A DNA stretch of 64,000 nt from a virus. This document shows, one piece after another, positions 5,403 to 35,584 of the stretch (within the stretch, counting starts at the first letter, position 1; every line of letters begins with the position of its first letter). The translations under genes and the position numbers were made by a program. The notes under the pieces were generated by a model. It had not been told where the DNA came from. It ran no database searches and was given only the letters and a program-made list of their open reading frames with translations. The stretch is from positions 5,508-69,507 of IMG/VR virus record IMGVR_UViG_3300032116_000145. The stretch is one strand, 5' to 3'.

Positions 5403-5421
5403 TTAATCTCGTATATTTGTA
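5389..5421 (+). promoter_or_regulatory. Bacteroidota primary-sigma promoter (-33 TTG, -7 TAnnTTTG)
   Basis: CTTG-N19-TATATTTGTA upstream of the 879-aa gene. Confidence 0.75.
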
Positions 5422-5482
5422 TAACTAGCTTATTCTCAAGCAGTTGTTAACTTTCTATGTTAATAACATAAATAATTAAAAC

Positions 5483-8122: not shown

Positions 8123-8127
8123 AACCT

Positions 8128-9834: not shown

Positions 9835-9848
9835 AAACCAGACTAAGG

Positions 9849-12800
9849 ATGCCTAAAGAACCTTTATACAATTTACCTCCTAAGAGTGGTATCCTAACTT
9901 CTCGTACAGTAGAGTTAGGAAATACTGCAGCATCAAGGTCATTAGCTTATAATGAAATTAGTGCTCAGAATACTAGTGCAATACTAGCACAGGAAGCACA
10001 GCAGAAAGAAGTTGCTAGATTAAAGGCAGCTAACGATGCAAAGATTGATGGAGCATTAGAAGTAGCTGCTAAGATAAACTTAGAGAATGCAGGTGCTCTT
10101 AGGCCTGGAACTTTTTTTCCTCCTCCATCTACTAAAGGTACTATGGGTCCTCAGTTAACTGCTGAGTATCAGATGGTCAATCAAGAAAAGAATAGATCTA
10201 AGCAAATTCTTACTCAGAGTTTTGCTGAGAAAGATCCTATTTCTGAAGACCTAGATAAAAAGATAAACAAACTAGAAAGTGATCTTAACAAAGCAAAGGA
10301 TACAGTTAGAATACAAACCTTTGGTGGATCTTCAGCTGCTCCTTTGGGAGTTAGTCTTAGTGGTATCTCTGATATAAAAGTAGGAGATACAGCTGAACAA
10401 AAAGTATTAAGAAATCAATTAAACGAACTTGTAAAGAGTCAAGCAACTATTAATCAGTTTAAGACCGATATCCAATTAGCAAAAGCTACTGAGGATTATT
10501 TAATTAATCTTAAAGGAAAGGGGCAGAAGCTAGACAACACTACTATAAAAGGACTCATAGATATATCTAAGGATATAACTGCTAAGCAAAGATCAGCTAC
10601 TAGGGGAGACGAGTTGTATGACCCTAATGCCTACGAGACTTACACCAAACAATTAAAAGGTAACAACGACTTCTTTGATTGGAGACATACAGAGTTTAGT
10701 ATCGGTAATGCAATCAATGCAGTAAGCAAGAAACTACAAGAAGATCCTACTAAAAGAGACGAACTTCTTCCTGTACTGAGAGAACTACAAAGTTCTTACA
10801 AGCAACATGAAAATGTTAACAAAGATGCTTACGACCACTATTATGGAACTTCTAAAAGATACTACAAAGAAGGTAAACCTTCTTCTACTTATCTGAAGAC
10901 TCAAGTAGGTATGGCAGCTACAGAAGGATTCTATAATTTTATTTCTCCTTTTGTTTCTGCTTCACAGGATTTATTGGGATTTCAGAAAGCTGCATTTGAA
11001 ACTAGACAAGCTAAAGATAAATATTTCTCAGGTGACTTATTGCAAGCAGACTTAGACGGAGATAACCGTATTACAGAAAGAGATACAGACATACACGGTC
11101 AACATCAGTATATAGGACAGAACGTTACCTATACTAAAAAAGATGGTAGTATGGGCTTTATAGGATCTTCTGTACTAGGGGCTTCTGTTAGAACACTAGC
11201 TGAAATGGTTCCTACTTTAATAGCTACTAGAGGATTGATGGCAGCAGGTGCAGGCGCAAGACTTGCTACTTTTGCTCCTGTATCTATTTCTTCTGGAGTA
11301 AGATCTTTTGAAGAAAATAAAAAATGGTACAAAGATAAAAAAGACGTAGCTATTGTAAGTGCTGTACAAGGTATTATTGAAGGTGCTACAGAATCTATTG
11401 TTCCTGATATTAGTTATTTTCTAGGAAACAAATCACTAGGTACTAAAGCATTAGGTGCTACTGAAAAAAAATACTTTGTTGCTCAGACTTTAAGTCCAGA
11501 GTTTAACAGTCTTTCTGCTAGTGCTAAGAACTTCTTATTAGGTTCTTACTACACAGGTAGATCTTTGGCTAAGCAAACTTTACAGGAGGGAGCTGAGGAA
11601 GAAGTATCTATGTTTGCTAATTATCTGTTTGATAAAGTTTATAAAACTAAAGACGAACAGTTTGGTGAAAAGCCAGAAGAGTTGAATGACTCAAGTGTTC
11701 TGGGCATGGGTAAGTCTATGGTTAAGACATTTGTAGAATCTGCAGCTGCTGGTTTGCTTATGTCTGGAGCTTCTATTGGGTCTTCACGTGCAGAGGATAG
11801 GAACTATATGCGATTTAATGTTGCAAACAATCCTGAACTCTTTAAACAAGAATTAACTAAGCAGTTACAAAACAACGAGATTACTCGTGATCAGTATAAC
11901 AGAGGTATCCTAGAGACTGGTCGCTTAACTCAGTTGAAGGAACAAGCTAACCGTACTATGATGAATCTAGTAGACGGTAACACCCTACTAGAAGACAAAG
12001 ATCAGCAATACGATTACTTTTCTAGACTATTGACTAGAGACGATCTATTGCAGAAAGTAGATTATAACTCTTTGTCTGAAGAAGACAAGGTTGCTTATGC
12101 TAAACAAGTAGAGACTGTAGAGAAAGAAATTGACTCTTACGAAAACTTGGCTAAGCAATATGCTGAGATGCCTCCAGAAAAAAAAGAGGGAGTATTGGCT
12201 AAAATGGTACAGAGACAGTTAGACAATGTAAAGTCTACAAACAGTCCTAGTGTACTAGCACAAAATTTAGAAGCTATTGACGATACTATACAAGTAGGAG
12301 AGAGAACAGGTAAAGGTTCTCCTATTATGGTTTCAGGCAGACAACAAGTAAGAGAAGCTGTAATTGCTCGTATGGAACAATTACAAACCGTTGAGGAGAA
12401 TGGTAATACTGCATTTGAGAACCAACTACTAGATACTCCAGTGGAGTCTATGGGTGAGTCTATGCAGGTTAGCAATACTGTGCGTTTAGAGAAACTTTTG
12501 TTGGAGAATGATAGGATGGTTAGTCCTGCAGTAAAACAAGAGCTTAGAAGTCGTATAGCGAGTGCTTCTCGTGTTGCACAAGAAAGGCTTAACGAACTCC
12601 CTAAGAAAGAACAAAGAAAAGTAATTGCAAGAGAGTTAGCACGTGTAGAACTATTACATCCAGGTACTGCGTTCAGTGACGAAAGACTCAAGACATTGTT
12701 TGGTATGGAGTTTACTCCAGAGGAGAAAGCTGAAGTAATTAGAGAAACTGCAGTAACTTTATCTAGAGAAAAAGAAAAAATCAAAGACGAAGAAGTACTA

Positions 12801-15374
12801 CAGCCTGCAGAGAAGGATATTGTAATGGATGCTTTGATTAAGTCGTTTGAGTCTCAACCACTAGAAGTACAGGTAGAGAACCAGGAAGGTAATCTAGAAA
12901 GAGTAAGAAATGAAGAAAGAGTAAATAGAGAGAAGAGGGCAATCTTTGCTATTCCTAGATCTAAATCTAAAGACCAAGCTAAGGGTAGAATTAAATCTAT
13001 TTTTAAGGCGATGGGTTATAGTTCTGAAGATATTAACAAGGCCCTAGAAGATATTAATAAAGTCTTTGATAATGAGGAAGTTACAGAACCTGGAGATATC
13101 TATAGTTCCTACCTAAGATTCCTAGACCCTAACTTGCTTAAAGGTTTACCCGATAAAGCAGTTACCGAGGAAGTTATAGTAGAAGACGCTGTTGTAGCCC
13201 CAGAGACTCCTGAAACACCTACTGAAACACCTACAGAAGTAGTTGCTGAAGTAATTCCTAGTACTACCGAAGAAGATGAGTTGTTTGGGACTAACGAGGA
13301 AATAGATGCTGCAAGAGAGAAGAAATTAGGAATACCTGAAGTTGACCCTGCAGATCAAGTAGTAGTTGAGACTCCTATTGTTGTAGAGGATGAGTTTGAT
13401 GGCTTAGAGGTTGTTCCTGTAAGTACTATTACTTCTCTTGAGTTAGTACACACTACTCCTACGGTATTTACTAGTAGTAATTCTGGAGTACAAGGTTCTA
13501 TCATGAGGACTATAAGCAACTCTGTAGAGTCTTATAGTATTAAGTTGATGGATATGTTTTCTTTTATTAGAGAGACTTTAGGCGAGTCAGCTATGTCTAG
13601 CCTAGAGAACATCTATAATAATGTAACAGAGGCGCTTAAAATACAGGATAAAGAGGCTATCGCTAAACTCAAAGAAGAGTACTTGTCTGTATTTAGTGGA
13701 AGTACGTTTGCTCCCGAACAATTAGAATACATTTGGAACGAACAATACATCAAAGGAAAGCCTGATGCTTCTGTTCCTTTTCAAGAAGCGGCTTACGTTA
13801 CTAATCCTCAGTTTGCACTAGCATATAAAGACGAGGAAGTAACTGTTGCTGCAGTAAATAAGAGTACAGGAGAGTTGTTCGTTTACAAAGCAAAAGTAAC
13901 AGGTAACGTAAATGACTCTAACCAGATTGAAGTTAAGACTGCTAAGGGTGCTTTAGTTTACGTTAAGAAGAGCAGCATTCAAGCTGGTAAGGTTATACCT
14001 ATTAACGTAAGAGTTAACTTTAATCAGACTAACTCTGTAATGATGACAGCAGTAGATAGAACTAGCGGAGAGATTGCTAAGTTTAACTCTAACGGAGAAA
14101 GAGATTCTCAAGGAGACACTCAGTTGAATGTATTTGCTCCTAAAGAAAATGCTACAATAAAAGAAGTAAAAAAGAATCTTGCTTCAGGTCAACCTATCTC
14201 ACATACTCTTCCTATTCATACAGGTGCTAGAATCAATACTGCTGCTGCTTATAGAAAAGGAAAGAACTCTGTTTATCTAACTGCATCAGTTGCAGGAATT
14301 GATACTAGTATCCAAATATCAAAACCTGAAATAGAAACTCCAAGTCAGCCTGCAGTTTCTGATACTGACATAAGTTTAATATCTACTCCTGTTTCTACAA
14401 TAGTCGGAGAACTTGCTAAACTAAAAACATTAAATGAAAAGTTAAATTGGCTAAGAGAAAATAACTTATTGGCTCCTATTAACATTAATGGCAAAGAGTA
14501 CAATGTAGTTGACTACTCTGATAGAGTGATGGTCTTAATGAAAATTGGTAAGTTTAACATACCATTCTACATAAGCACAGGACTGGCAGGAAAGAAAACT
14601 GTAAAAGCGGGTAAGTGGTATGTTGTGTTTGGTATTGGATTGGAGAGAGGTTGGATAAATAAAGGAAGTGAAGAAGAGATAAATAACAACTACGGAATTC
14701 CAATATTTGAAAAAATTGTTAAAATACTAAACGAAGGACTAGGAACTATTCAAAGTAGAGAAGATAATGGTGATGGTAAGTTAAAAGATGGTATAGGATT
14801 CTTGGGTGATTCTAAAGAAGAACTAGGAGCTTTTAACGCTAACATGCATTTGCCAACAAATCCTGCAGGTACAAACACTGATGGTAAACAATATTACACT
14901 CACGTAAACAGTACAATTGATTTGATAAAAAGTGAAGTAAGTGAGTTACTTTGGGATATACAGTTAGGAACAAATTTTACTACTATCCCTACTCCTCCTC
15001 AACCTAGAGACGCTAAAGCTGATATAGAAAGAAGAAGAGAAGAAGAGTTGAGGCAAGAAGAGAATGTAGAACTTCTATACCCCTTAATACTTGAAGAAAA
15101 TCCAACAAGAGAAGAGAAAGAACTTATTGCCAAAAACAAACAAGATAAAAAAGATAGGCAAGAAAGAAGGGATAAGATTAACTTTAGATACGATCTAGAA
15201 CTAGCTACTTTAGAACGAGCAATAGAACCAGAGGTAACTACTAATCTAAATGCAGATGAACAAGCGATTCTTTCCTTCGATGTTAGTGCACTAGAGAACC
15301 TTGAGAGTGCTGCTGAGTCCTTAGATCAGAATACAGGACAGGAGATTGATAATGCAGGAAGCTGCAAACTTTAA
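9849..15374 (+). CDS. Giant virion-packaged (ejection) protein, 1841 aa
   Basis: Hydrophobic Gly/Ala segments with EG.EE motif (QEGAEEEV), coiled coils; first of the large RNAP-associated genes. Confidence 0.65.
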   Translation: MPKEPLYNLPPKSGILTSRTVELGNTAASRSLAYNEISAQNTSAILAQEAQQKEVARLKAANDAKIDGALEVAAKINLENAGALRPGTFFPPPSTKGTMGPQLTAEYQMVNQEKNRSKQILTQSFAEKDPISEDLDKKINKLESDLNKAKDTVRIQTFGGSSAAPLGVSLSGISDIKVGDTAEQKVLRNQLNELVKSQATINQFKTDIQLAKATEDYLINLKGKGQKLDNTTIKGLIDISKDITAKQRSATRGDELYDPNAYETYTKQLKGNNDFFDWRHTEFSIGNAINAVSKKLQEDPTKRDELLPVLRELQSSYKQHENVNKDAYDHYYGTSKRYYKEGKPSSTYLKTQVGMAATEGFYNFISPFVSASQDLLGFQKAAFETRQAKDKYFSGDLLQADLDGDNRITERDTDIHGQHQYIGQNVTYTKKDGSMGFIGSSVLGASVRTLAEMVPTLIATRGLMAAGAGARLATFAPVSISSGVRSFEENKKWYKDKKDVAIVSAVQGIIEGATESIVPDISYFLGNKSLGTKALGATEKKYFVAQTLSPEFNSLSASAKNFLLGSYYTGRSLAKQTLQEGAEEEVSMFANYLFDKVYKTKDEQFGEKPEELNDSSVLGMGKSMVKTFVESAAAGLLMSGASIGSSRAEDRNYMRFNVANNPELFKQELTKQLQNNEITRDQYNRGILETGRLTQLKEQANRTMMNLVDGNTLLEDKDQQYDYFSRLLTRDDLLQKVDYNSLSEEDKVAYAKQVETVEKEIDSYENLAKQYAEMPPEKKEGVLAKMVQRQLDNVKSTNSPSVLAQNLEAIDDTIQVGERTGKGSPIMVSGRQQVREAVIARMEQLQTVEENGNTAFENQLLDTPVESMGESMQVSNTVRLEKLLLENDRMVSPAVKQELRSRIASASRVAQERLNELPKKEQRKVIARELARVELLHPGTAFSDERLKTLFGMEFTPEEKAEVIRETAVTLSREKEKIKDEEVLQPAEKDIVMDALIKSFESQPLEVQVENQEGNLERVRNEERVNREKRAIFAIPRSKSKDQAKGRIKSIFKAMGYSSEDINKALEDINKVFDNEEVTEPGDIYSSYLRFLDPNLLKGLPDKAVTEEVIVEDAVVAPETPETPTETPTEVVAEVIPSTTEEDELFGTNEEIDAAREKKLGIPEVDPADQVVVETPIVVEDEFDGLEVVPVSTITSLELVHTTPTVFTSSNSGVQGSIMRTISNSVESYSIKLMDMFSFIRETLGESAMSSLENIYNNVTEALKIQDKEAIAKLKEEYLSVFSGSTFAPEQLEYIWNEQYIKGKPDASVPFQEAAYVTNPQFALAYKDEEVTVAAVNKSTGELFVYKAKVTGNVNDSNQIEVKTAKGALVYVKKSSIQAGKVIPINVRVNFNQTNSVMMTAVDRTSGEIAKFNSNGERDSQGDTQLNVFAPKENATIKEVKKNLASGQPISHTLPIHTGARINTAAAYRKGKNSVYLTASVAGIDTSIQISKPEIETPSQPAVSDTDISLISTPVSTIVGELAKLKTLNEKLNWLRENNLLAPININGKEYNVVDYSDRVMVLMKIGKFNIPFYISTGLAGKKTVKAGKWYVVFGIGLERGWINKGSEEEINNNYGIPIFEKIVKILNEGLGTIQSREDNGDGKLKDGIGFLGDSKEELGAFNANMHLPTNPAGTNTDGKQYYTHVNSTIDLIKSEVSELLWDIQLGTNFTTIPTPPQPRDAKADIERRREEELRQEENVELLYPLILEENPTREEKELIAKNKQDKKDRQERRDKINFRYDLELATLERAIEPEVTTNLNADEQAILSFDVSALENLESAAESLDQNTGQEIDNAGSCKL

Positions 15375-15404
15375 TTAAAAAAGAGTAAAAGTACTAAACT
15401 AAAG

Positions 15405-15414
15405 TATATTTGTA
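15405..15414 (+). promoter_or_regulatory. -7 promoter element directly before the RNAP start codon
   Basis: TATATTTG followed 5 nt later by the ATG at 15418. Confidence 0.6.
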
Positions 15415-15417
15415 AAG

Positions 15418-18400
15418 ATGGCAAAAATAATCTGCCCTACTAGGGAAAATAAAGACTTTTCAAACTTAAGCAATGCTCTTGGTAGTGATGCCTTAGCTAG
15501 ATACGTATGGTATAAGAATGGCAACCTTCCTTTAAACTTAACTGAAGATGTTGAAGGTAATATTGTTTCTAGTGATATCTACGACAGAATCTTAAACGAA
15601 GTTGCAGATGGTAATGAAAGTCTTGCTTTAGGGATTACTGCTATCATGTACTACCCTAGCTTTCAAGAGAAGTACGCAGAAGAAGACCCTGCGTTTACTG
15701 TAGACTACATTAAGCAAGAAGCACAAGATAAAGCAGACAAAGCAACTAAGAGACAGGCACAACTTCTTGAAGAAAAAATTATTCCAGGTACTAAGACTCT
15801 TTACATTCAGTCTCCTGAAGGTGATGTTATCTACACCCAAGAAGAAGGAAAAGAAATTTTCGACAGTTTAGAATATCTTGCTTCTACTAAAAAGAGTTGG
15901 AAAGCAGTAGTTAATGCTTTAGCAGAAAGACTTACTGATATTCAAGCTAAGATTAAGAACAGTGCTGTAGATCCTGAGTCTAATGTTACTCCACAAGAAC
16001 TTGCTATTGGTAAGAATCTAGTTAATCTTCTTAAGAATTGGTCTCAAGTAAAAGCCTGGTATCTTAGTCAGGATACAAATTTTGGCTTAGAGTTACTTGA
16101 AGACGAAGTAAATCCAGAGACAGGAGGAAACATTTATAACAAGAATGCACATGACCGTAGTCAGATGGACTTAGCATCTGCTGAGGTTATTAAATTAGTT
16201 CAGTCTCTTCCTAAGTACAATAAACTTACTACACAGAATCGTAAGGACGTAAAGGCAGGAAAGAAAAGCATTACTGATTTTCAAGTTATAAGTAACCTTA
16301 CGGGTTTCCCTATTGTAGGAAACTTCTCTACTAACTGGAATGTACTTACCTCTAGTTTGTCTGGAATTACTAAGTATGACAAGATTCTTGAAGAGTTGGC
16401 AGTTGTTGCTCAAGAGTATCCTCAGTTTAGGAACTTGGTTAATATGCTTCCCAAAGAAGATGTACAAGATGTTGACTTAAACACAGCAAACTTTGTAGCT
16501 TCATTTGTACAAACAGTATCTCTCCCTGAGATTGCTGCTTACCAATTATCTATTGGAAAGAAGAATGACGGTAAAGAGACTAAGATTGTTACCAAGACTT
16601 TTCAATTAGGCACTAGAACAGTTGACAATCTTATCAAGTATTTTGATGAAGATTACTTTAGGTCTAATCCTAAGTACGGAATGCTTAACGATGAAGGAAA
16701 GACTGTACTTAATATCCCTAAAATACTAGAAGACTTTGCTAATATCAAAGACATTGGAAGATTCTTTGTAGAGAGGGGTGATATAAACTCTGCTGAAGGA
16801 AGACAGTTACTACAGAATATTCATAAGTTTTATATTGCACTTGGTATTATTCCTACTAATGCTCTTTATCAAAAAGATAAGAAAGCTCTTTATGACTTTC
16901 TAAACAGTACCACTTATAGTGTAAGAGAGCTTTATGATAAGTTAGAAGCAAGTAAAGATAACAAAACAGTTACTCAGCCTCTTCAGTTCTTGTCTCGTCC
17001 CCAAGGGAGCGGGAAAGCATTAGGCCCTAAGTTTGACATCATCAACTCTATCGTGGGATACTACGGTAAGTTTGAGAGAGAGTTTGCTTCTGGTTCTTAT
17101 TTCAACCCCGAAGACAAACTACAATACAATCGTGTACAATACTTCTACCTAACCCAAGTAACTAATGCACTTAACAACGTAGCAAGTTACAACGAATTGA
17201 TTGCTATGCCAGAGTTTGCTCATCTAGATGTAAGATTGAATCCTAACATATTAGGTTCTGTGTGGCTAGAGAGAATGTTTGGTTTAAGCATTAAGGGTAA
17301 GACACCTGCTCAATTGAAAAAAGATTTAGATGCAGGAAAACAATTTCCTAGACTTAAAACTAAATTTAGTAAAGAACCGTTTAAGATAAACATTGTAAAT
17401 TATTCAGGAGTAAGTATTGATGCTAATGTTAAAGAAGGTATAACTACTACAGAACTTACTTCAGAAGATAAAGTTGTACAAGACTTTTTATCTTTCTTTG
17501 GTTCTGGTATAGTTGAAAATATTCGTTTTGGTGACAAAGGAACTTCGTATGCTACAGTTACCTCAGGTAAAGTAGAAGAAAGAATTTACATTCCTCTTAA
17601 CTCTGACGTACTTGGTATGATGGAGAAACCTACTTCTGTTATTGAACAATCTTTGGTAGATCAGTTTAATGCTTACCTTACTTCAGAAGTCTTTCGTGTA
17701 CTTGCCGTAAACAAAGAAACTAAGAAAAATACTTACACTAAGAACGGTAGACAGTTATTCTTATTTAAAGATATTATTCCTAAAGAGGACTACGATGCTT
17801 TAACTAGTGAGGATAGTAATGTAGTAAAAGAAGCTTACGCAAGAGTGTCTAGTAATCTTCCAACTTACTTAGGTCAATACTTTACTAAGCAGACCCAAGA
17901 GTATAAGAAGCGTTTAATGGATTCTGTACTTGGAGACAACACTGCTATCAAGACGACCATTACCGAAGAACAAAGAGAAGAACAATTGGTAAACTCTTTG
18001 TCTGCTTTGGGGTTTGTAGATCCTGCTTTATTTAAAAAGAACCAACTTACTAAGCAAAACTTAGACTACGTTATTGCAAACTACCTTAAGAACGACTTTA
18101 TCCATAAGGCAGAGTTCATGAAGGTGTTTGTAGGAGATATTTCTAACTTCCAAGTTAAAGGTGACTTCCGTGAGGTATTCAAACGTATTCCCCTTACTTC
18201 TTCTCCTGGCTTTATCTTTCAGGATAATCCAGTAGTGATGTCTCACCTAAACAATAGTAGTGCAACTAACGGATTACATAAAGCGCTTACAGGAGCTGCT
18301 CAGAAGTTTCGTAAGACTGTAAGAACTGTTATCTTTAATGATGTTAATACATTCAGTAAAGAAGATTGGCCTACCTATAGAAATGCTTTAGGTCTTCCTG

Positions 18401-21400: not shown

Positions 21401-22512
21401 AAGAAGACTTGGTTAAAGCCTCTAGAAAGATTAAGGATAACTACCTTGTTACAATGGTACAGTTGTTTGGGGTAGATGGTACAGGAACTAAACTTCAAGA
21501 TAAGTTTTTCTCTAATGCAGGTCTTTTGAATAAAAATAACCCAGAGAATTTATCTAAGAGGATTGCGGACATCACTGAGAAGTACAGCGACTTATCTAAG
21601 AATCAGATTTTGGCTAATCTTTACACAGCAGAGACAACTTCAAATAATATTATCTTTAGACTTAGAAACGCTAACCTAGATAGTTACCTAGTAGGTGAGT
21701 ATGAGAAAGCATTTATTGAAGGTCTTAATGATGTTCGTGAAGATGTACGTAGTGTATTCGAGAATCTAGGATTAGGTACTTTTCTTGAATTTGGTTTTGC
21801 TAAGAACTCTTATGGTCTTTCTCAAGTAATTCCTTACGAGACTTATGTAACTCATACAACTCAAGCAGTTGCTAAACTTAAAGAAGGACTCAACAATCCT
21901 ACGTTTGCAGAATCTATGTCTAGGTATGTAGGCTTGATGACTTACTTTAACGATAGTAGAAATGTCCCTACTTTAGTTCTTAACTCGAGATTAGCTAAGG
22001 ATAAACATCAAGCCGATTTCTTGATTACTTTAGGTAAATTAGAAGCTGAAGTAGAAGAAAGTTTGAGAAATATAGCTAACTTTAAAGGCAAGACTTATAA
22101 TAACTTTGACAACATTAAAGCAAAAGGTAAGTTTAGATCTTTGCCTATTCAGTTGGTAGATATTATCCCTACTAAGAAAACTACTCCTGTTGCTATGAGA
22201 AACTTAGAAGGTACTATTCTTATTAACGAGAAAGAATTTATTAAGAAGTTTAATGATAAGGCTTGGACTAAACCTGCTAAACAACTAGACGATAGCTTTG
22301 CTACCCCTTTAGCTGCAGATGAATTCCAATCACTAGAAGAGTTCTTGACCTTTGCTTTGATACATGAAGCTAAACATAACACTATCAAACAAGAAGAAGG
22401 TGAAACTAAGGGACAATACGAAGACAGAATTAATCAAGCTGCTCTACAAGACCTACGCTACAACTACGGTAAGGGAGAATCAAGCAGTGTAATAGATCCA
22501 TTTAAATGTTAA
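15418..22512 (+). CDS. Virion single-chain two-barrel DNA-dependent RNA polymerase (crAss-like, phi14:2 gp66-type) with C-terminal HExxH segment
   Basis: RIPVQGLNSM...IVVP...GSDFDIDKL (DFDID at 19810-19824), DAQGLVSLDFYR...GQWS, LHKYSLAP, NGHVDIAKE motifs. Confidence 0.9.
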   Translation: MAKIICPTRENKDFSNLSNALGSDALARYVWYKNGNLPLNLTEDVEGNIVSSDIYDRILNEVADGNESLALGITAIMYYPSFQEKYAEEDPAFTVDYIKQEAQDKADKATKRQAQLLEEKIIPGTKTLYIQSPEGDVIYTQEEGKEIFDSLEYLASTKKSWKAVVNALAERLTDIQAKIKNSAVDPESNVTPQELAIGKNLVNLLKNWSQVKAWYLSQDTNFGLELLEDEVNPETGGNIYNKNAHDRSQMDLASAEVIKLVQSLPKYNKLTTQNRKDVKAGKKSITDFQVISNLTGFPIVGNFSTNWNVLTSSLSGITKYDKILEELAVVAQEYPQFRNLVNMLPKEDVQDVDLNTANFVASFVQTVSLPEIAAYQLSIGKKNDGKETKIVTKTFQLGTRTVDNLIKYFDEDYFRSNPKYGMLNDEGKTVLNIPKILEDFANIKDIGRFFVERGDINSAEGRQLLQNIHKFYIALGIIPTNALYQKDKKALYDFLNSTTYSVRELYDKLEASKDNKTVTQPLQFLSRPQGSGKALGPKFDIINSIVGYYGKFEREFASGSYFNPEDKLQYNRVQYFYLTQVTNALNNVASYNELIAMPEFAHLDVRLNPNILGSVWLERMFGLSIKGKTPAQLKKDLDAGKQFPRLKTKFSKEPFKINIVNYSGVSIDANVKEGITTTELTSEDKVVQDFLSFFGSGIVENIRFGDKGTSYATVTSGKVEERIYIPLNSDVLGMMEKPTSVIEQSLVDQFNAYLTSEVFRVLAVNKETKKNTYTKNGRQLFLFKDIIPKEDYDALTSEDSNVVKEAYARVSSNLPTYLGQYFTKQTQEYKKRLMDSVLGDNTAIKTTITEEQREEQLVNSLSALGFVDPALFKKNQLTKQNLDYVIANYLKNDFIHKAEFMKVFVGDISNFQVKGDFREVFKRIPLTSSPGFIFQDNPVVMSHLNNSSATNGLHKALTGAAQKFRKTVRTVIFNDVNTFSKEDWPTYRNALGLPDTMEYQEYVNSPKEADAQGLVSLDFYRNYLIGLGQWSQQQENAYLNEIEIFKILNKTEKTEEDYAKMQELKASMDYVGFPPLKLGHYGPIVEDVKLTALHKYSLAPMIPSMIAGTQLEELNKQMIAKQIDYATFNSGSKASNYGDALDFYVPDADNAGTLKVNPDIKGNNVTTLHLTNLKQQQYIAPKFKNEATLATQMVKLIFGDFFAQGNLADLNASTAKNISDLYKDYTDVLGNIIGAEEANLFNKLGITKDAQGNFVNFDNKKFYNFLKGELDKRDTSASLKRYIQLDEAGNIKYPLDATKNRAEIENILLSIINNKIISQKIHGESYVQMASTAQGNTRFTKPTEEQIKKYGINGLRFYRKGPDGTEPADVKIAFNPKKHAGLLNLTFRGKKIGTIENLNKILKSSNQEAIDWVNQHSKKLSLVGVRIPVQGLNSMEYFRVREFLPTSAGPVIVVPAQIVVKSGSDFDIDKLTMFEPKLTANGDLVDDGGFTLKDYNTNLPSQKESMRMLKTLTEVKQALVETLAATPAYVNKKQLEKEIQELTESISTTEEEISKFSNKKMSLEELQALMSEGSNDKENLIKQKIEEAKALVRTGDLAASLPVLKALKSEINDYVSTVNGVQNFKQANINKLIDVFSSVLSMKENYDKLVLPNTNTVLTEISDKLQANPITSTELFSPLTSNRVYGDNIESKKALGIDAKLNTMQKEFQIAGLVYTSEFASMYPFSANRVEKGISLGEKTLTDGTSISRVISEAINGHVDIAKEDWIILLGLDKAKTPLFHSMILAGTPVKTALDFLNKPVVKHVLKESTRGPLFKQLGVTRGRPVKMTFKEVLMDTLKSLNISQESLSLVNDSIVTDKSGIIKVKPTIEALSLSLKNNDFANESDAAQIQDIVDLFVVKEMQGAIQQLTGLVDYNTRRFQNSYQVKADKISAAKIRESFNAEGLDKLTNKSALSKFNQANTIESLMPQVFDVSNHPSVLDAITIYSNKAGLFTEEDLVKASRKIKDNYLVTMVQLFGVDGTGTKLQDKFFSNAGLLNKNNPENLSKRIADITEKYSDLSKNQILANLYTAETTSNNIIFRLRNANLDSYLVGEYEKAFIEGLNDVREDVRSVFENLGLGTFLEFGFAKNSYGLSQVIPYETYVTHTTQAVAKLKEGLNNPTFAESMSRYVGLMTYFNDSRNVPTLVLNSRLAKDKHQADFLITLGKLEAEVEESLRNIANFKGKTYNNFDNIKAKGKFRSLPIQLVDIIPTKKTTPVAMRNLEGTILINEKEFIKKFNDKAWTKPAKQLDDSFATPLAADEFQSLEEFLTFALIHEAKHNTIKQEEGETKGQYEDRINQAALQDLRYNYGKGESSSVIDPFKC

Positions 22513-22516
22513 AAAT

Positions 22517-23032
22517 ATGGCAAGTTGCGACTTAAAAACAACAAACAGAGAATACATGATTGCAAAGGGAGCCATAGTACAAGGTTCCCTTAAAATACCG
22601 AATGAACGTTTATTCGATCTTCAGAACGCAGAGATTAGAGACTCTGCCAATCAACGTTATAATCTAACCAACGAGGAACTTCCTTTCACTAAAACAGAGA
22701 GAAGAATTACTAGAAGTGATTATCTTAATAGAGGATCTGATTTCTTTATAGAGTGGGGCTTTAATGATAAGTTCTTTGACAAGATTACTCCTATAGTAGA
22801 AATGTATGAATCTTTTGATGAAGATATTTACGAAGAAGTATCTACTATTCCTACTTACACCCAGACTCAACTTTCTTTTGAAGAAAGTATAGACGATAAC
22901 AACATAATAAAGGAAAGTCCTATTAGGGTATCTTTCCCTTACGAAGCCGAAGACTATCTTGCAGATGTTAAGGCAGAAACTAAAGCCAACTTAACTAGAC
23001 TTCAATTTAAAGAAGAGGCTTGCAATATTTAA
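22517..23032 (+). CDS. Acidic 171-aa protein between giant virion proteins (putative cargo linker)
   Basis: Fills the gap between the RNAP and 2009-aa genes; Cys only at residues 4 and 169. Confidence 0.6.
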   Translation: MASCDLKTTNREYMIAKGAIVQGSLKIPNERLFDLQNAEIRDSANQRYNLTNEELPFTKTERRITRSDYLNRGSDFFIEWGFNDKFFDKITPIVEMYESFDEDIYEEVSTIPTYTQTQLSFEESIDDNNIIKESPIRVSFPYEAEDYLADVKAETKANLTRLQFKEEACNI

Positions 23033-23033
23033 T

Positions 23034-23043
23034 TATATTTGTA
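23034..23043 (+). promoter_or_regulatory. -7 promoter element
   Basis: TATATTTGTA in the intergenic gap 20 nt before ATG 23064. Confidence 0.55.
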
Positions 23044-23063
23044 TAATAACTTAAGATAAAATA

Positions 23064-26000
23064 ATGTCCTGTAAAGCAACTATAAAATCTCCTATTACTG
23101 GTAAGACAGTTATGTCTACTACTTACTATCAATTGACAAACGTATTTGATAAAGAAAAAGCAGTAGATATCTATAATAGCATGTATACTCCTGGATTCCA
23201 AGATCTTCTTGGATTTGATTGGACTACCAACAAAGAGTATAGAGAAGAACTTAACCTAAATGGAGAACCTAAGATTGAGTACCTTAACGAGATTCTTGGA
23301 TTGGAACTATCTGATTATCAAATAGATGCAATTAACTCTGAAGAAGATGCTTTGACTCAGTTAGATCCTATGCAGGAATTTCCTACATACGAAGAGGCTG
23401 TATCAGTTGCAGCAAACTTTAACTTAAATCCAAGGTATAAAAATATCTCAGCAGAAGTAGTTCGTACAGATAAAGGCTTCAGAGTCTCTGTAGGTTTATT
23501 TAAGTCTACTGGTCCTGAAACTAAAGAAACTTTAAGTAGACTTAATTTTGGAGAAGTTATTTCTCAATTCTTTCCAAGTAGTAACTCTACTTGGGATGAT
23601 GTGGTGTCTGGATTGCTTACCAGTGATAGACTTTCAGATACCCAGAAGACTATTCTTACTAAACTAAAAGAACTTCAAGAGATTAACCCTAGTGTAAGAC
23701 TAGTAATATTTGACGACACTGATTCTATGGATGCAGGTCAAGTTGCATTCTATGATAATAACTCACGTACTATCTACATAGGTAAGACAGTTAGTGAGAG
23801 TATGGATGATTCTAAGCTCATTACAGACCTTATCCATGAGTCTATGCACGCTTACACCATTAAAGCTTTGAATGAGCCTGTGACAGATCAGGAGAAAGCA
23901 TTTAAGGCAGAAATGGAAAAGGTCTATAACTCTTACTTGAAGAAGTTTCCTAACCTAGTTGTTAACTATGGTTTTTTTAACGTAGAGGAGTTTGTAAGTG
24001 AAGTAGTATCTAATCCTCATTTTAGGGCAGCATTAGTTTCACAGCAAGAATCTCTTAAGGAAGATAAAAATTTCTTAAGGAATATGATAGAGAAGATTAC
24101 AAACTTCTTAAAAGGTTTGTATACGGATCTACCTAATATTGAACAAATTGATTCTACAATCAATAACTACTTAGATCATTTGATTGAGACTAGGGATATG
24201 CCTATTACTCAGGGAGAATATGATCTAAGGTTTAAGAATGAAAAGTATAACCCTAATGGCCTTACTGATTTAGAAAGATTTCCAGAACTGCAGAAGTTTG
24301 TAAACTTTATCAATAAGAATACTTCTAGTAAGATGTGGGGACAGATTACACAGTCGCTTAAGGAGATTGACTCTACTCTTAGAAGTACAGGAAGATTGCA
24401 GGAACGTTTTAGTGACATTAACTCTACTAATGCTAAAGACATTCTAGCTAATACAATTGCCTACTTGAATACAGCGCTTAGTACTCTTACTACCGTACAG
24501 AATCAACTTAACTTGTATAAGAAGAATGCTTCGGAGTTTGAAGACTTTGCTATTATTAAAACTTTTAACTACGCTAAGAACTTAAGTGGAGTAATCAAAG
24601 AACAGATCAATGAGTTTGAAAAAGAATTCAATGCTATCTTTAGTTTAGAGGATATAGCAGACATGCAAGAGAGGGCTACTACACAAGAAGCTCTTGAGAT
24701 GGCTATTCCTGATTATGCACAGGTAGTTCAGGAACTTATGCAAACTATCGAAGAGACTCGTAAGTTAGTAGACTCTATTGATAGTAATTATAATAATGCA
24801 GTAGTAGCTCCTATTGCTAGGGAGTTAGCTGCTTCTTTTGGTGAAGAGGCTACAGTAGAGGGTAAGAAGAGAGTAAAAGAACAACTTAGTGCGTTGATTG
24901 CAGCAAAATCCAAGGCAGATGCTAATGGTAAAACTGCTTTATCTAAAGTACTTGCTAAAGAAATCGAAGACCTAAGACAGTTAGAGAGATTTATTCCTAC
25001 TGCAAAAAACATTGAAGAACTTCTTAAGAACGATAAAAAGTACGGAAGAGAGACTAGCTTCTTGGGTATGTGGATTAACAACGCAGTACAAGGAAAGAAT
25101 CCTACTGTACAGATTGTTAAACAGTTTATTGACAAAGCTACTGCTGAAGCACAAGTAAACTCAGGTAAGTTTAGTAAGCGTGCTCAAGATATCTTTGACA
25201 GACTCCGTAACCTTAGAGGTAAGCTGGCTACTGAGGGTATGACTTACCAAACTCTTTACAAAGGATTTACTAGAGTTGTTGAAGTTCTACATAAGCAACC
25301 AGATGATTCGCTTAAGAAAGTAAAGCAAGCAGTACTAAATACTAAATTAAAAGAAGAGGAGTTCCAAAATGATCTTAAACTTCTTTTAGAGAGAGAAGAG
25401 CAGGCTATTAAGTCAGGTGATCAATCTGCCATAGATAATACTAAGGCTGCTACTAATAAATTCCTAGAAGACTATGCTCTACGTCCTTACACAGACGAAT
25501 ACTATAAGATTCAAGAGTTACTTACTGAAGAAGCAAAAGAAGCTAGAGAAGCAATCTTGTCTGAGATTAACTTTTTGTCAGAAGATCTTAATCCAGATGA
25601 GATTACTAAGGATGAGATCAAAAGATTGTTGACTGAGTTTAATCGCTTAGGCTCTTTGTACTACTCTAATGGAGATGAGAAACCTGTAGGAAGCAAAGAC
25701 AGAAGAGTAGCAGAGTCGATCATTGCTTGGAAGAAGGAAAGAAATAATCAAGATGTACTTACTTATGATAACGTTACTAAGCGTAAGCAGTGGCAGATTC
25801 AAAAGAATGAGATAGACGAAGAGTACAATAAAATCCTTAAGAGAAAGAATGCCTCAGACATCTCCTTGTCAATGGCAGGATTCGCAGAACAGCAAGACGA
25901 GAATCTTGCAGAACAGAACGAAAAAATTACTAAGGAGTTCGAAGAGGCAAAGAAAGTAAGGGATAAGTGGTACGAAGAAAATACTAGAACAGAGATCTCC

Positions 26001-29000
26001 CCAGAGTTCTACAGAGAACAACAGGCTATAACAGACTCTATTAATGCTATTCTTAGTAGATATCCTTCTTTGGATGCAGAGGATCTTACTGATGCTTACA
26101 AGAGACTAAACAATGCTATCTTAGGTTTTAGAGACGGTGATGGAACTATCCAAGGTAATGACGTAGTTAATGCAGGCAACTTGTTTCAGACAGTTAAGGA
26201 CATAGAAGCAGAGATAGAAGACATTAAGAAGTATGCAGAAGCAAGAGAGTTGAGTGCTGATGATAAATCAGAATTAGGCAGACTGTATAAAATGCTTAAT
26301 GCTTTGCAGGGTAGAAAAGAAACCCAATACTATAGAGACAAAGTAGCAGAAGTCCAAGCAACGATCAGAACAGAAGTAGTTCAAGACCAAGAGTTCATGG
26401 ATTCCTTGGAGGAGAAAGCTAAAACAAGAAGAGAGACTTACATTGCAGCACAGTTGATGAGTACATTTACAACTGTAGAAGAGATAAAACAAACAATCCT
26501 AGAAGAAGAAATAGACGATAGGTTTAGAGCTAGTCAGTGGTATAAAGACAATCACATTGTTACCGAAGAGGTAAAAATGGTAAATGGTGATACAGTAACT
26601 ACAACTAAAGAAAGACCTTCTTATATCTGGACTCAGATTCTTCCTAAAGATCCTCGTCATATTATAGAAGAAGCTCCTTCTTTTCAGTGGTCTATTCCTG
26701 TAATTGATGAAAAGTTCAAGAACAAGGATTATAGATTTACTTCTGAGCCTAGGCCAAGAGAGACTTCTGATGGTAAATACTCTAACCAAGAGTACTATAA
26801 CCTCTCTAGTCAGGAAAGAGCTATCCTAGATGAGATTATTTCTTTACATGAGGATGTACAGAAAGAGTTGCCTAAGAGTCAACGTATTGGATACTCTATA
26901 GTAAACGAGAATAAGACAGCATTTGAAACTCTGTCTAACGTACTTAGAAGACCCCTTGATACTTTCTCAGGTATTTATGAGTTGTTTAAGTTAGCTTTTG
27001 TACCTAACATAGGTTCTAGTCAATACGAACAACTAAACGACTCTGAGGTAGAAACTATCTCTGGAAGAAAAGTACAATTGATTCGTAGTCGTTATAAGAG
27101 TCCATTGAATACAGATCAGGTATCTTATAATATCTTGGGTAACATTGCTAAGTTTGGAGTTTACTCTTCACACTTTGCAGCTATGCAAAAGATTATGCCT
27201 ACTGTTTTCAGTACTAGGGATGCATTAGAAAGAAACAAAACTGCTGAAAGCACTTTGTCTACAGTAGACTTTGAGATTTCTAAAAACTTTTATGGAGAAG
27301 AGATTAACTCAATAGGCAACAAAGAGTTTGTTAAACTTCTTACTCGTCCTGCAAATAAGTTTTTATCTATAGGTCAACGTAAAGCTTTGCAGTTTAATGC
27401 AATTGCATCTATTAAGAACTTTGCAGTCAACTTGTGGAATGCAGGAATAAACGCAAACTTAGCAGGAGTAAGTAGACAAGAATTCATTCAGGGTATGTGG
27501 AGAGGACTTAAACAATCAGATAAGATGTTTGAAGTATATAGAGGTGGAGGAAGTGTTTCTTACTACACAGACTTACTTATGCACTTTAACGCTATGCCAC
27601 AGGCTCAACCTGGAGCTAAGGCAGATACTATTCATCAGACTATGTTAAATAGATTTGTGTCTAGTGAGACTGCAGGTTTTGTTATTCGTGGCTATTTGGA
27701 GAGTATTTCTACTATTGCTGTATTTGAGTCTATTATGAATCAATACAATGTCCAGATAGAAGAAGGTGGAAAAACTAGAACTATTAAGTTAGCAGAAGCA
27801 TATGAACAAGTAGACGGTAAACTACAACTTAAAGCTGGAGTAAAAGTAGAGAACATATCTCGCTTAGAACAACAGATCAGAGATAGAATTTTTAATTACT
27901 TTACTTCAACACAAGGTAACTACCATAAGAGAGGATCAGCTCAGTACGAAAGATACATCCTTGCAAGAATGGTAATGAGTATGAAGCGTTGGCTAGCTAC
28001 TACGTTTAATAATAAGTATGGATCAAGAAGACTTCAGTTAAACACAGGTAACATAGAAAAAGGATTTAACAGAGAAGTAGGTTCTTACTTAAGACTACTT
28101 GCTTTGGGTGGTAGTTCTATGGCTAATGAAACTGTTACAGATCAACAAAAGTCTAGAATGCGTACTGCAGCTACCAACTTAGTAGGTATGCTTGCTATAC
28201 AACAAGCCTTGATTACTACTATGGGAATTATAGCTAAGTCACTAGACCCCGATGATGAGGAGACTACTAGTCCGTTCTTAGCTTTTATTGCTAACTTACT
28301 TCAAGGTATGCACGACGAGTTGACTACCTTCAGTCCTATAGGGGCAGCAAACTGGGCTTACAAGTCATTCTATCAAACTCCTCAGAAACAACCAGGAGAG
28401 AGTAACACAATATCAAGAGCTAAACAGTTAGGTTGGAGTGTTATCGGTGGTACAACTAAAGCTTCTTATGATGCATTGAGTCCTTTGTTTGACGGAGATA
28501 CTTGGTCAGATCCTTTTGGTTCTTTCTCATATAAGTACGCTAATGGTCTTCCTAACTCATTTAGTACTCCTAAAGCACTATATGGTAAGCCTAATCTACT
28601 TGCAGCTTTTATGGTTTACACAGGAGCAGAATCAGGTATGAGTCAATTCCTACAGCCAGAGAAGAAGCTTTACACTGTATTGAAATACAACCCAAGGTTA
28701 GACGTAACAGAAGAAAGAAGAATCAAGTTAGATCCTTTGGGAAGCTACAATCAATTAAGTGAGAGAGTGTCTGAGATTAAAAAAGAATTAAAGTCAGTAG
28801 ATCCTTCAAAGAGAATCACAGATCAAGAAGAGAGAGTAGAGAGATTTAAAGAGATTGCTTCCTTGGAGAATAAGATGGAGATTATAGGAATGCAGTATCC
28901 ATACGTAGCAGCCTACTATAGGAATAGAAAGTTTGGTTCTTCACTGGGGAGCAGAGAGGCAGCGAGACTTAACAAAGAAATAGAAAGGTATCAAATCCAA

Positions 29001-29093
29001 AATAATCCTCAGGAGTACCTAAGAGACAAAATAGAATCTAAGGTAGAAGGGTTAAAGAATAGGATAGAGTCAGAGAGATTAAGGAGAAAGTAA
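23064..29093 (+). CDS. Giant virion-packaged protein with N-terminal zincin-like (HExxH) metallopeptidase domain, 2009 aa
   Basis: AFYD...TIYI...DLIHESMHAYT...EEFVSE.VSNP.F; C-terminal QGNY...MSMKRWL region resembles crAss ejection proteins. Confidence 0.75.
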   Translation: MSCKATIKSPITGKTVMSTTYYQLTNVFDKEKAVDIYNSMYTPGFQDLLGFDWTTNKEYREELNLNGEPKIEYLNEILGLELSDYQIDAINSEEDALTQLDPMQEFPTYEEAVSVAANFNLNPRYKNISAEVVRTDKGFRVSVGLFKSTGPETKETLSRLNFGEVISQFFPSSNSTWDDVVSGLLTSDRLSDTQKTILTKLKELQEINPSVRLVIFDDTDSMDAGQVAFYDNNSRTIYIGKTVSESMDDSKLITDLIHESMHAYTIKALNEPVTDQEKAFKAEMEKVYNSYLKKFPNLVVNYGFFNVEEFVSEVVSNPHFRAALVSQQESLKEDKNFLRNMIEKITNFLKGLYTDLPNIEQIDSTINNYLDHLIETRDMPITQGEYDLRFKNEKYNPNGLTDLERFPELQKFVNFINKNTSSKMWGQITQSLKEIDSTLRSTGRLQERFSDINSTNAKDILANTIAYLNTALSTLTTVQNQLNLYKKNASEFEDFAIIKTFNYAKNLSGVIKEQINEFEKEFNAIFSLEDIADMQERATTQEALEMAIPDYAQVVQELMQTIEETRKLVDSIDSNYNNAVVAPIARELAASFGEEATVEGKKRVKEQLSALIAAKSKADANGKTALSKVLAKEIEDLRQLERFIPTAKNIEELLKNDKKYGRETSFLGMWINNAVQGKNPTVQIVKQFIDKATAEAQVNSGKFSKRAQDIFDRLRNLRGKLATEGMTYQTLYKGFTRVVEVLHKQPDDSLKKVKQAVLNTKLKEEEFQNDLKLLLEREEQAIKSGDQSAIDNTKAATNKFLEDYALRPYTDEYYKIQELLTEEAKEAREAILSEINFLSEDLNPDEITKDEIKRLLTEFNRLGSLYYSNGDEKPVGSKDRRVAESIIAWKKERNNQDVLTYDNVTKRKQWQIQKNEIDEEYNKILKRKNASDISLSMAGFAEQQDENLAEQNEKITKEFEEAKKVRDKWYEENTRTEISPEFYREQQAITDSINAILSRYPSLDAEDLTDAYKRLNNAILGFRDGDGTIQGNDVVNAGNLFQTVKDIEAEIEDIKKYAEARELSADDKSELGRLYKMLNALQGRKETQYYRDKVAEVQATIRTEVVQDQEFMDSLEEKAKTRRETYIAAQLMSTFTTVEEIKQTILEEEIDDRFRASQWYKDNHIVTEEVKMVNGDTVTTTKERPSYIWTQILPKDPRHIIEEAPSFQWSIPVIDEKFKNKDYRFTSEPRPRETSDGKYSNQEYYNLSSQERAILDEIISLHEDVQKELPKSQRIGYSIVNENKTAFETLSNVLRRPLDTFSGIYELFKLAFVPNIGSSQYEQLNDSEVETISGRKVQLIRSRYKSPLNTDQVSYNILGNIAKFGVYSSHFAAMQKIMPTVFSTRDALERNKTAESTLSTVDFEISKNFYGEEINSIGNKEFVKLLTRPANKFLSIGQRKALQFNAIASIKNFAVNLWNAGINANLAGVSRQEFIQGMWRGLKQSDKMFEVYRGGGSVSYYTDLLMHFNAMPQAQPGAKADTIHQTMLNRFVSSETAGFVIRGYLESISTIAVFESIMNQYNVQIEEGGKTRTIKLAEAYEQVDGKLQLKAGVKVENISRLEQQIRDRIFNYFTSTQGNYHKRGSAQYERYILARMVMSMKRWLATTFNNKYGSRRLQLNTGNIEKGFNREVGSYLRLLALGGSSMANETVTDQQKSRMRTAATNLVGMLAIQQALITTMGIIAKSLDPDDEETTSPFLAFIANLLQGMHDELTTFSPIGAANWAYKSFYQTPQKQPGESNTISRAKQLGWSVIGGTTKASYDALSPLFDGDTWSDPFGSFSYKYANGLPNSFSTPKALYGKPNLLAAFMVYTGAESGMSQFLQPEKKLYTVLKYNPRLDVTEERRIKLDPLGSYNQLSERVSEIKKELKSVDPSKRITDQEERVERFKEIASLENKMEIIGMQYPYVAAYYRNRKFGSSLGSREAARLNKEIERYQIQNNPQEYLRDKIESKVEGLKNRIESERLRRK

Positions 29094-29212: not shown

Positions 29213-29533
29213 ATGGAAAATAATGATTTGCTTAAAGAGCAAGCTAAACGTCTAAGACAAATCGCTTCTAACACAGAGGAGCCTGCTGACGTATCTAGAA
29301 CCCTTACCCTAACAGGTTCGCTTACAGATTTGCCAGCAGAGTGTTGCAAATTCGTAACACTTATGAATACCACAGGATCAAACTTAAGTTTTACAGTAAA
29401 TAATGCTACTTCAGGTGTATCTGGAGCAACTATCTTGTTGCCTACTAGTGCAGGAATTAGCATAGATACTTCTAATACTTCCAATGTAAAAGTAGCTGGT
29501 ACAGGTACTCTTTATTACATTGTATCTCAATAA
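29213..29533 (+). CDS. Small beta-rich virion protein (hypothetical)
   Basis: 106 aa, T/S/G-rich beta pattern; first gene of the fibre cluster; A-rich leader. Confidence 0.55.
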   Translation: MENNDLLKEQAKRLRQIASNTEEPADVSRTLTLTGSLTDLPAECCKFVTLMNTTGSNLSFTVNNATSGVSGATILLPTSAGISIDTSNTSNVKVAGTGTLYYIVSQ

Positions 29534-31440: not shown

Positions 31441-31492
31441 ACATTAAATAAACTTAAATAAAATTAAATAACTTTTAAATAAAAATACGACT

Positions 31493-33604: not shown

Positions 33605-33623
33605 TTTTTAATCGAATCAATTT

Positions 33624-35573: not shown

Positions 35574-35584
35574 ACTAAGCGAAC

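Follow-up and report, generated by a model that had tools for sequence, protein, structure and literature searches.

The 64,000-nucleotide stretch analysed here (positions 5,508 to 69,507 of the IMG/VR virus record IMGVR_UViG_3300032116_000145; hereafter the window) carries a block of giant genes that includes a virion RNA polymerase (RNAP). Four consecutive proteins of this block, here called A to D, have only six cysteines between them, and each of these lies at an end that faces the adjacent member of the set. In related phages such cysteines occur as pairs, i.e. one near the C end of the protein before the junction and one near the N end of the protein after it; the pairs covary with the gene structure and they do not depend on the genes being adjacent. 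The sequence comparison strongly supports the view that the junction-facing cysteines are C-end/N-end pairs that would stand in for a peptide bond. We consider it probable that the six cysteines of the window make up three tail-to-head pairs that form disulfides, by which the four proteins would become a covalent head-to-tail chain of ~6,400 residues, to be released by reduction in the host.

Cysteines at the junctions of the proposed chain proteins

The block comprises six consecutive genes on the plus strand, coding for proteins of 879, 568, 1841, 2364, 171 and 2009 amino acids (aa), and is followed by genes of tail proteins. Protein A (1841 aa, 9849-15374), the first link of the chain, has a single cysteine, Cys1839 (codon 15363-15365), 2 residues before its C end. 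Protein B, the virion RNAP (2364 aa, 15418-22512), has only Cys6 (15433-15435) and the C-terminal Cys2364 (22507-22509), and protein C, a link protein of 171 aa (22517-23032), has only Cys4 (22526-22528) and Cys169 (23021-23023). The last link, protein D (2009 aa, 23064-29093), has Cys3 (23070-23072) as its sole cysteine. All these genes and codons are on the plus strand, and the gaps between the A-D genes are short (4-43 nucleotides, nt). The 879-aa protein (5483-8122, plus strand) and the 568-aa protein (8128-9834, plus strand), which lie upstream of the chain, contain no cysteine at all; the former is not part of the chain and the latter is C2-like by position.

These positions had been reported in a first-pass annotation of the window, which had also stated that A-D have no internal cysteines and that the 879- and 568-aa proteins are cysteine-free. 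A script count reproduced the open reading frames (ORFs) and the cysteine positions of A-D exactly, bore out both statements, and the six codons were read in the DNA. In numbers, A-D have 6 cysteines in 6,385 residues, each of them at most 6 residues from a junction-facing end. The remaining 34 ORFs of the window have 119 cysteines in 11,926 residues (0.998%), a frequency at which ~64 would be expected in A-D (P(<=6) = 1.7e-20). The lack of cysteine in the 1,447 residues of the 879- and 568-aa proteins has a P of 5e-7. The chance that six out of six cysteines fall into the 36 junction-facing end positions is (36/6385)^6 = 3e-14, which is a post-hoc figure.

Related loci were collected in three scans of viral contigs that gave the loci L001-L098; the third scan found 412 relatives, 80 of which were kept. 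The 93 loci analysed, window included, were clustered by identity of the RNAP core, which gave 61 clusters at 70%, 32 at 50% and 18 at 40%. One representative was taken from each cluster that had junctions (60 clusters). A junction was defined as two consecutive plus-strand ORFs of at least 150 aa, and a cysteine was scored if it lay at most 12 residues from the facing ends.

Among the 169 junctions scored in this way, 92 have cysteines on both sides, 6 only on the upstream side, 8 only on the downstream side and 63 on neither side. Terminal cysteines are thus conserved and co-occur in homologues, as the first-pass annotation had proposed to check, the 92 paired junctions standing against 14 one-sided ones. 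The association is very strong (169 junctions from 60 representatives; odds ratio 121, p = 4e-30 in a Fisher test that ignores shared ancestry). The junctions without cysteines are the outer borders of the chain, i.e. those between the ~530-620-aa protein and A, and those between D and the next gene. The borders of the ~530-620-aa protein with the first giant protein are cysteine-free in all representatives. Within the complete chains, three cysteines were seen at outer ends, and each of these loci has a C-terminal cysteine on an upstream ORF that is shorter or cut. After the discordant cases had been resolved, no junction between two chain proteins was found without a cysteine pair in the 60 representatives, and the pairing rule persists down to 23% RNAP identity.

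The placement of the cysteines is narrow on both sides. Where a paired junction has a flank of at least 1,000 aa (91 junctions), the upstream cysteine is 0 residues before the C end in 23 cases, 1 in 26, 2 in 14, 3 in 10, 4 in 9 and 5-8 in 9, and the downstream cysteine is residue 3 in 41 cases, 4 in 34, 5 in 13 and 6 in 3. Away from the ends, cysteine is very rare. The 145 ORFs of at least 1,000 aa (365,496 residues) have 172 terminal and 44 internal cysteines, the latter corresponding to 0.012%. In the same loci the cysteine frequency is 0.72% in downstream ORFs and 0.058% in the upstream mid-size proteins.

The number of cysteines follows the number of gene breaks. Among the clusters whose chain is complete (n=33), the mean number of junction-facing cysteines is 2.00 for one break (n=14), 4.00 for two (n=10) and 6.12 for three (n=8), and the sole unbroken chain (L056) has none. 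The same tendency is seen in the mean total cysteine numbers (3.07, 4.30 and 6.62 for one, two and three breaks; Spearman 0.78, p = 1e-7). In other words, the two cysteines of a junction come and go jointly and are missing where there is no gene break, which holds for the 169 junctions and the 33 complete chains alike and is the behaviour that the first-pass annotation had asked about. As for L056 itself, positions 4748-19756 of this locus are one ORF of 5,002 aa, the fully unbroken form of the block, in which the RNAP motif is preceded by 2,611 residues and followed by 2,391. It has no terminal cysteine and two internal ones.

The discordant cases mentioned above are of several kinds. In L032 and L033 protein A has its only cysteine at 19-21 residues from the end, i.e. 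beyond the 12 residues that were scored. In L036, L049, L085 and L094 small ORFs without the two cysteine caps stand between capped partners. Five of these six uncapped ORFs are, according to Pfam, homing-endonuclease genes of the GIY-YIG or T5orf172 type, which stand free and exactly at junctions between chain genes in four clusters (L036:12361-13047; L049:278-760 and 10024-10638; L085:17986-18576; L094:16042-16713); the sixth has no Pfam match. Insertions of such endonuclease genes may be what split an ancestral giant gene. In L086 and L094 the ORF that follows D has an N-terminal cysteine and D has no C-terminal cysteine; these ORFs were taken as genes outside the chain. Finally, the RNAP gene of cr108_1 (L102) is broken at the catalytic motif without a cysteine pair, and the gap (L102:15331-15649) consists of a group I intron (80 bits to RF00028, E 1e-20), so that the RNAP protein is continuous. 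The uncapped breaks are endonuclease genes or a group I intron, not true breaks of the protein. The cr108_1 record itself annotates the two RNAP exons as separate proteins.

The rule can also be followed in named phages. In phi14:2, the only cysteine of gp67 (1797 aa) is Cys1797 and that of gp65 (1421 aa) is Cys3, and gp66 (2180 aa) has Cys3 and Cys2179. In crAss001, gp47 (2341 aa) has only Cys2339, gp50 (2412 aa) has Cys5, Cys1334 and Cys2404, and gp49 (1349 aa) has only Cys5. It is conspicuous that crAss001 gp47 is encoded on the strand opposite to gp50 and gp49, which means that the rule belongs to the proteins and not to a DNA signal at the gene ends. In the Flavobacterium phage FPSV-S29 a 4419-aa protein has Cys4418, and Cys3 and Cys1461 are found in the 1596-aa protein that follows it. 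Six gut Suoliviridae (cr10_1, cr53_1, cr115_1, cr125_1, cr118_1 and cr4_1) have a fused A+B protein of 4,460-4,946 aa with a cysteine 1-10 residues before its end; in the protein that follows, Cys3 or Cys5 is present. These fused proteins have 4-6 internal cysteines each, and some of the next proteins also have internal ones. Altogether the cysteine pair is present at the RNAP-D junction in 10 of 10 named-phage records, a set without p-crAssphage and without named members of the Intestiviridae or Crevaviridae.

Terminal couplers and modularity of the proposed chain

The sequences around the terminal cysteines were compared as motifs. A tail of the type F-x-E-x-x-C always stands directly before a head of the type MSC-x-A-x-IKSP, no matter which protein carries it: the tail is on the link protein in L005, L008, L016, L019 and L027, and on the RNAP in L017, L025 and L026. 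An N-terminal motif of the type C-P-N...W likewise recurs on RNAPs, link proteins and D proteins. A telling case is that of L029 and L050, which share one 70% cluster. The RNAP of L050 ends with a tail of the FEV-x-KC type preceding D. In L029 it is an intervening 328-aa protein (17008-17991) that bears this tail, and a new cysteine pair links it to the RNAP. The intervening protein is an ADP-ribosyltransferase of the ART-PolyVal type (E 1e-10, 42.9 bits, cut-off 31.2). In two other loci ART-PolyVal is found as an insert within D (L026:17578-19677 and L027:18683-20782); the other ART-PolyVal E values among the relatives are 3e-8 and 2.5e-7. In L020 (16673-18301) the C-terminal region of the RNAP contains a 2OG-Fe(II) oxygenase domain (2OG-FeII_Oxy_2, E 2e-14). 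Judged by these motifs, the chain behaves as a modular train, in which the tail goes with the next head and the cargo between them is variable.

The architecture has changed repeatedly: a quick maximum-likelihood tree built from 61 RNAP cores requires no fewer than 4 changes at the A|B border and no fewer than 10 in how many capped link proteins there are, the latter state being defined using the caps. We also considered whether L017, L026 and L020 represent a clean fusion of the RNAP with the link protein, and rejected this: only the last 37-98 residues are shared with the link protein and the middle differs, so these loci should be read as having no gene break and no pair, not as orthologous fusions.

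According to the distance between the N end and the catalytic motif, the RNAPs fall into classes of ~1,380-1,800 residues, of ~2,050-2,520 residues and, if fused, of more than 3,000 residues. Residues 168-1009 of the window RNAP align 660-1,030 residues deeper in the class II RNAPs. That the A|RNAP break might have shifted between the classes is a guess: the extra segment of class II compared with the C part of class I protein A gave no match in blastp and a probability of 0.3% in hhalign. In the 70% cluster of the window (L007, L014, L011 and L013), the RNAP has 2237-2735 aa and protein A has 1559-1981 aa, and the difference in RNAP length lies wholly after the catalytic motif (775-1273 residues).

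Identity of the block and the neighbouring genes

On gene order and homology, the block is the structural operon of a distant crAss-like phage. The window comes from a 69.5-kb virus record that is rated 59% complete, and its gene order agrees with g068-g065 of phi14:2. The RNAP matches phi14:2 g066 in tblastn (E 2e-15, 25% identity, residues 876-1476); crAss-like gut phages are matched at similar levels, and all 57 matched records are below 60% identity. The catalytic DxDxD motif lies at residues 1465-1469, and D1465, D1467 and D1469 are invariant in alignment A1, which is composed of relatives and gp66. A phmmer search with the window RNAP alone matched no PDB chain; the profile made from A1, which itself includes gp66, matches 6vr4_A. 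By this homology, protein B is a putative giant two-barrel RNAP homologous to phi14:2 gp66. Proteins A-D correspond to gp67-gp66-gp65 of phi14:2 and to gp47-gp50-gp49 of crAss001, plus a fourth small member, the 171-aa protein. The 879-aa protein has only a weak PHROG match and no Pfam match, and by position it corresponds to the cargo protein C1 of crAss001 (gp45/gp46 upstream of gp47).

The 171-aa link protein has no family in PHROG or Pfam. Its C4 and C169 are invariant in alignment A3, and its C-terminal tail is of the F-x-E-x-x-C type. In relatives it is present, absent, or swapped for other cysteine-capped proteins. No Pfam effector domain was matched in the chain proteins of the window.

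In protein D the N-terminal residues M1, C3, A5, I7, S9, P10 and G13 are invariant, and so is an HExxH motif at residues 258-262 (23835-23849). The match of D to the SprT-like family of Pfam (E 0.013) is under the curated cut-off. The best fold matches of D(1-500) are HExxH-type folds with E values of 0.013-0.2, none of them significant, and a Foldseek search of the D(1-500) model against PDB gave nothing at E<=0.001. In the AlphaFold2 model of D(1-500), whose mean predicted local distance difference test score (pLDDT) is 80, residues 5-18 are predicted to form a beta-hairpin directly following Cys3.

Upstream of the block there are a large virion structural protein and small proteins. One of the latter, a 190-aa protein (4619-5191, plus strand), was overlooked in the first-pass annotation: it has Cys159 and a C-terminal Cys190, and the 879-aa protein that comes next offers no partner cysteine. 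It contains a C-terminal DUF6321 domain (E 4e-11), and its two cysteines are retained in L009, L010, L012 and L015. In L025 an ORF of 190 aa in the equivalent position has one terminal and one internal cysteine. Directly after D there is a 106-aa protein (29213-29533, plus strand) with adjacent Cys44 and Cys45; a 112-aa homologue in relatives has Cys22 and Cys23. The block is followed by five tail-protein or tail-spike genes. Four of the products are paralogous tail proteins of 616, 649, 608 and 602 aa (29590-39245, plus strand) that all match phrog_5939, and a 703-aa tail-spike-like protein is situated between the first two of them (616 and 649 aa).

Proposed mechanism, alternatives and known systems

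The mechanism that we propose is as follows. A Cys1839 would pair with RNAP Cys6, RNAP Cys2364 with link Cys4, and link Cys169 with D Cys3. At each junction a short conserved C-terminal tail would dock on the N-terminal region of the next protein, and the pair would be oxidised to a disulfide inside the assembled particle, away from the reducing cytoplasm. Separate gene products would in this manner become one covalent chain, comparable to the single protein of other lineages; the module would then resemble a giant injected 'polyvalent' protein for which different lineages use between one and five genes, and at every break a disulfide would take the place of the peptide bond. Given the placement at the extreme ends and the head-to-tail polarity, the joints would be nearly linear, and the purge of nearly all other cysteines would prevent wrong cross-links. 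The chain would keep the pieces at 1:1 and let them exit from the particle in a fixed order, and thiol reductases of the host would separate them in the cytoplasm. We infer in this way that the bonds form in crassviruses, that the cargo is threaded as one chain and that it is released reductively. The first-pass annotation had suggested disulfides or metal bridges between C and N ends: the comparison supports its C-end/N-end pairing, and the metal bridge finds no ligands, as set out below.

One structural prediction bears on the link-D junction. When D(1-500) was co-folded with the 171-aa protein, the score was 0.39, the best control scoring 0.01. The mark applied here is reached by 58 of 80 solved complexes and by 2 of 110 mismatched pairs; at scores of 0.60 or lower, it is reached by 7 of the 80 solved complexes and by both of the passing mismatches. 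The runs agree in at least 27% of the contacts, and the pLDDT of the 171-aa partner is 32-34. The predicted contact is weak support, and the fold of the 171-aa partner is itself uncertain in the models.

Several further points, like this last one, weigh against the proposed chain. The cysteine counts by themselves leave room for other pairings. The scoring took the first ATG as the gene start, and the Fisher test treats the clusters as if they had no ancestry in common. Some apparent fusions do not consist of orthologous pieces simply joined together. Gut crassviruses keep the pair despite their anoxic habitat. The host cytoplasm is reducing, and no thioredoxin or glutaredoxin gene was matched in the 69.5-kb record (59% complete), so the bond would have to form after assembly or lysis; a search for Erv1 was uninformative, as its control matched nothing anywhere. 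The disulfide has been seen directly in the cyanopodophage A4 and in no crassvirus. Finally, in the portions cited here, the crAss001 structure paper mentions neither a link between gp47, gp49 and gp50 nor their cysteines (Bayfield 2023, PMC10172136).

The main alternative is that the bonds are real but staple a static cargo assembly, a pre-ejectosome, within the capsid, the proteins not being threaded as one chain and the bond perhaps breaking before or during ejection. We regard this as unlikely. In the cryo-electron microscopy (cryo-EM) structure of A4, the C-terminal helix of gp27 lies in a cleft of gp26 and is held there by a Cys1715-Cys5 disulfide, which the authors, in the text cited, regard as a local stabiliser within the pentameric ring of the pre-ejectosome; the peptidase is in gp28 (PNAS 2025, PMC12002296). 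Also, gp47, gp49 and gp50 of crAss001 are placed in the capsid cargo zone in the portion of the report cited (Bayfield 2023, PMC10172136), and in the model of D the first 20 residues are folded into a hairpin and do not hang loose as a tail. A static staple, however, needs neither the extreme ends nor head-to-tail polarity, nor the loss of the pair where the genes are continuous, and the near-total purge of internal cysteines fits an unfolded passage.

A metal ion shared by the paired thiols at the tail-head interface, or a non-covalent contact, would do without a disulfide. Two close thiols could share a metal, and the cytoplasm disfavours disulfides. There is, however, only one cysteine per side, no conserved His or second Cys was found within the 14 terminal residues at the junctions compared, and the solved analogue in A4 is a disulfide (PMC12002296, in the part cited); we consider this explanation improbable.

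It is also quite improbable, in our opinion, that the cysteines are a thiol switch, in which Cys3 of D, with or without the preceding tail cysteine, would cap the HExxH zinc and keep a protease silent until delivery. The invariance of HExxH, the near-invariance of the N-terminal 13 residues of D, which are modelled as folded, and the zincin-like domain described in gp65 (Drobysheva 2020) would suit such a switch. It leaves unexplained the A|RNAP and RNAP|link pairs, where there is no protease domain, as well as the A4 pair, since the peptidase of A4 is in gp28 in the cited part of that report (PMC12002296), and the zincin fold of D has little support (SprT-like and best fold match both at E 0.013).

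A different pairing, in which the two-cysteine proteins close their own N end to their C end and A pairs with D, would give the same count of two cysteines per break. Yet the tail motif tracks the head of the next protein and not the N end of its own, the two-protein case of A4 is a junction pair (PMC12002296, as cited above), and a protein closed into a loop would pass through the tail less easily. In the gp66 preprint the words 'disulfide' and 'cysteine' do not occur. This pairing seems very improbable to us. Chance, or a nucleic-acid border signal that happens to encode cysteine, has nothing in its favour except the short intergenic gaps of 4-43 nt and can be dismissed in view of the probabilities of 3e-14 and 1.7e-20, the pairing and dose seen in relatives, the conservation of the rule to 23% RNAP identity, and the fact that it holds on opposite strands and across inserted endonuclease genes.

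If the disulfide-linked chain exists, it would explain how ~700 kDa of cargo, among it the polymerase with which infection begins, is packed in a fixed ratio and delivered in order, both by the phages that are most abundant in the human gut and by many relatives from aquatic habitats. It would also account for the varying gene number of the block, which is a single gene in some phages and as many as five genes in others. For annotation, a break with a cysteine pair would denote a true protein border, and a break without a pair an intron or an inserted selfish gene. The chain hypothesis can be tested in two cultured phages, phi14:2 and crAss001. More tentatively, we suggest that crassviruses and at least one unrelated cyanophage family may share a redox-cleavable pseudo-polyprotein: 2-5 cargo proteins including the RNAP, with optional effector 'wagons' such as the ADP-ribosyltransferase, would travel as one thread in a fixed order set by the couplers and be cut by the reducing cytoplasm of the host, and insertions of endonucleases would perhaps have split the gene.

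The A4 pair is the nearest known parallel. In the A-4L (A4) genome the cysteines of the bond are the only ones of the 1717-aa gp27 and the 1114-aa gp26, and the gp27 gene is upstream. As in the window, the only cysteine of the upstream giant is 2 residues before its C end and that of the next product is near the N end. A4 differs in that it has a single pair and no RNA polymerase, whereas the window has three serial pairs that run through the RNAP and covary with the gene breaks. A phmmer search with four A4 proteins (gp26-gp29) against the ORFs of at least 400 aa in the 93 loci gave nothing at E<=0.01, so the resemblance is one of design and not of detectable descent.

The RNAP module of phi14:2 and crAss001 is a homologous block with the same cysteine rule (gp66 being PDB 6VR4); the window adds the 171-aa link protein, and its RNAP is only ~25% identical. 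The proteins of this module were found in phi14:2 and crAss001 particles by mass spectrometry, as stated in the cited parts of the two reports (Drobysheva preprint; Bayfield 2023, PMC10172136). For crAss001, the cited portions of the latter describe several disulfides in the tail and portal vertex, name gp45, gp46, gp47, gp49 and gp50 as cargo, and propose that the proteins unfold in part as they are ejected and that their order depends on how they are packed and on their contacts with one another (Bayfield 2023, PMC10172136). The masses given there for the three crAss001 chain proteins are 262.5, 276.9 and 154.5 kDa, together ~690 kDa, and both reduced and non-reduced samples were acquired in that study. 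The zincin-like domain is named in gp65 (Drobysheva 2020), and the preprint, in which the words cysteine and disulfide are absent, supposes that fused forms are cleaved.

Joining of separate gene products is also known from split inteins, whose halves have ~100 and ~35 residues with the nucleophile at the intein-extein border. Cysteines 0-8 residues from the C end and 3-6 residues from the N end leave no room for these, and we rejected them on that ground, no search with intein hidden Markov models having been made.

The ejected proteins of Schitoviridae (N4 gp50; DEV gp71, gp72 and gp73) and of T7 (gp15 and gp16) are nearly cysteine-free, as are the proteins described here, and a giant virion RNAP is among them. 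T7 gp15 has no cysteine and gp16 has none within its first 1,302 residues. In the DEV paper the cysteine frequency is given as 0.00075% in gp71 homologues against 0.865% in proteomes, and is tied to passage through the periplasm. These proteins have no terminal cysteine pairs, whereas in the present block cysteines have been retained at precisely the ends that face a junction.

The polyvalent proteins of phages and conjugative elements are very large, are injected and combine several domains, and their effector domains can be exchanged; their release was proposed to occur by proteolysis, and crAss, cysteine and disulfide are not mentioned in the portion of that work cited here (Iyer et al. 2017, PMC5512222). 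The chains of the related phages are similar in that they carry ART-PolyVal, either as a free cysteine-capped link (L029) or as an insert in D (L026 and L027), and, in L020, the 2OG-Fe(II) oxygenase domain of the RNAP. They are dissimilar in that the crassvirus pieces are encoded separately and apparently joined afterwards.

The statement of the first-pass annotation that such a linkage had not been described is thus correct in one respect and not in another. The order-wide pairing rule was not found in the literature searched, a scope that excluded subscription papers and supplements, but the A4 bond and the cysteine-free ejected proteins have been published. In other words, one solved pair and the cysteine-free ejection proteins were known, and they are extended here to a proposed order-wide chain through the virion RNAP that tracks the gene structure.

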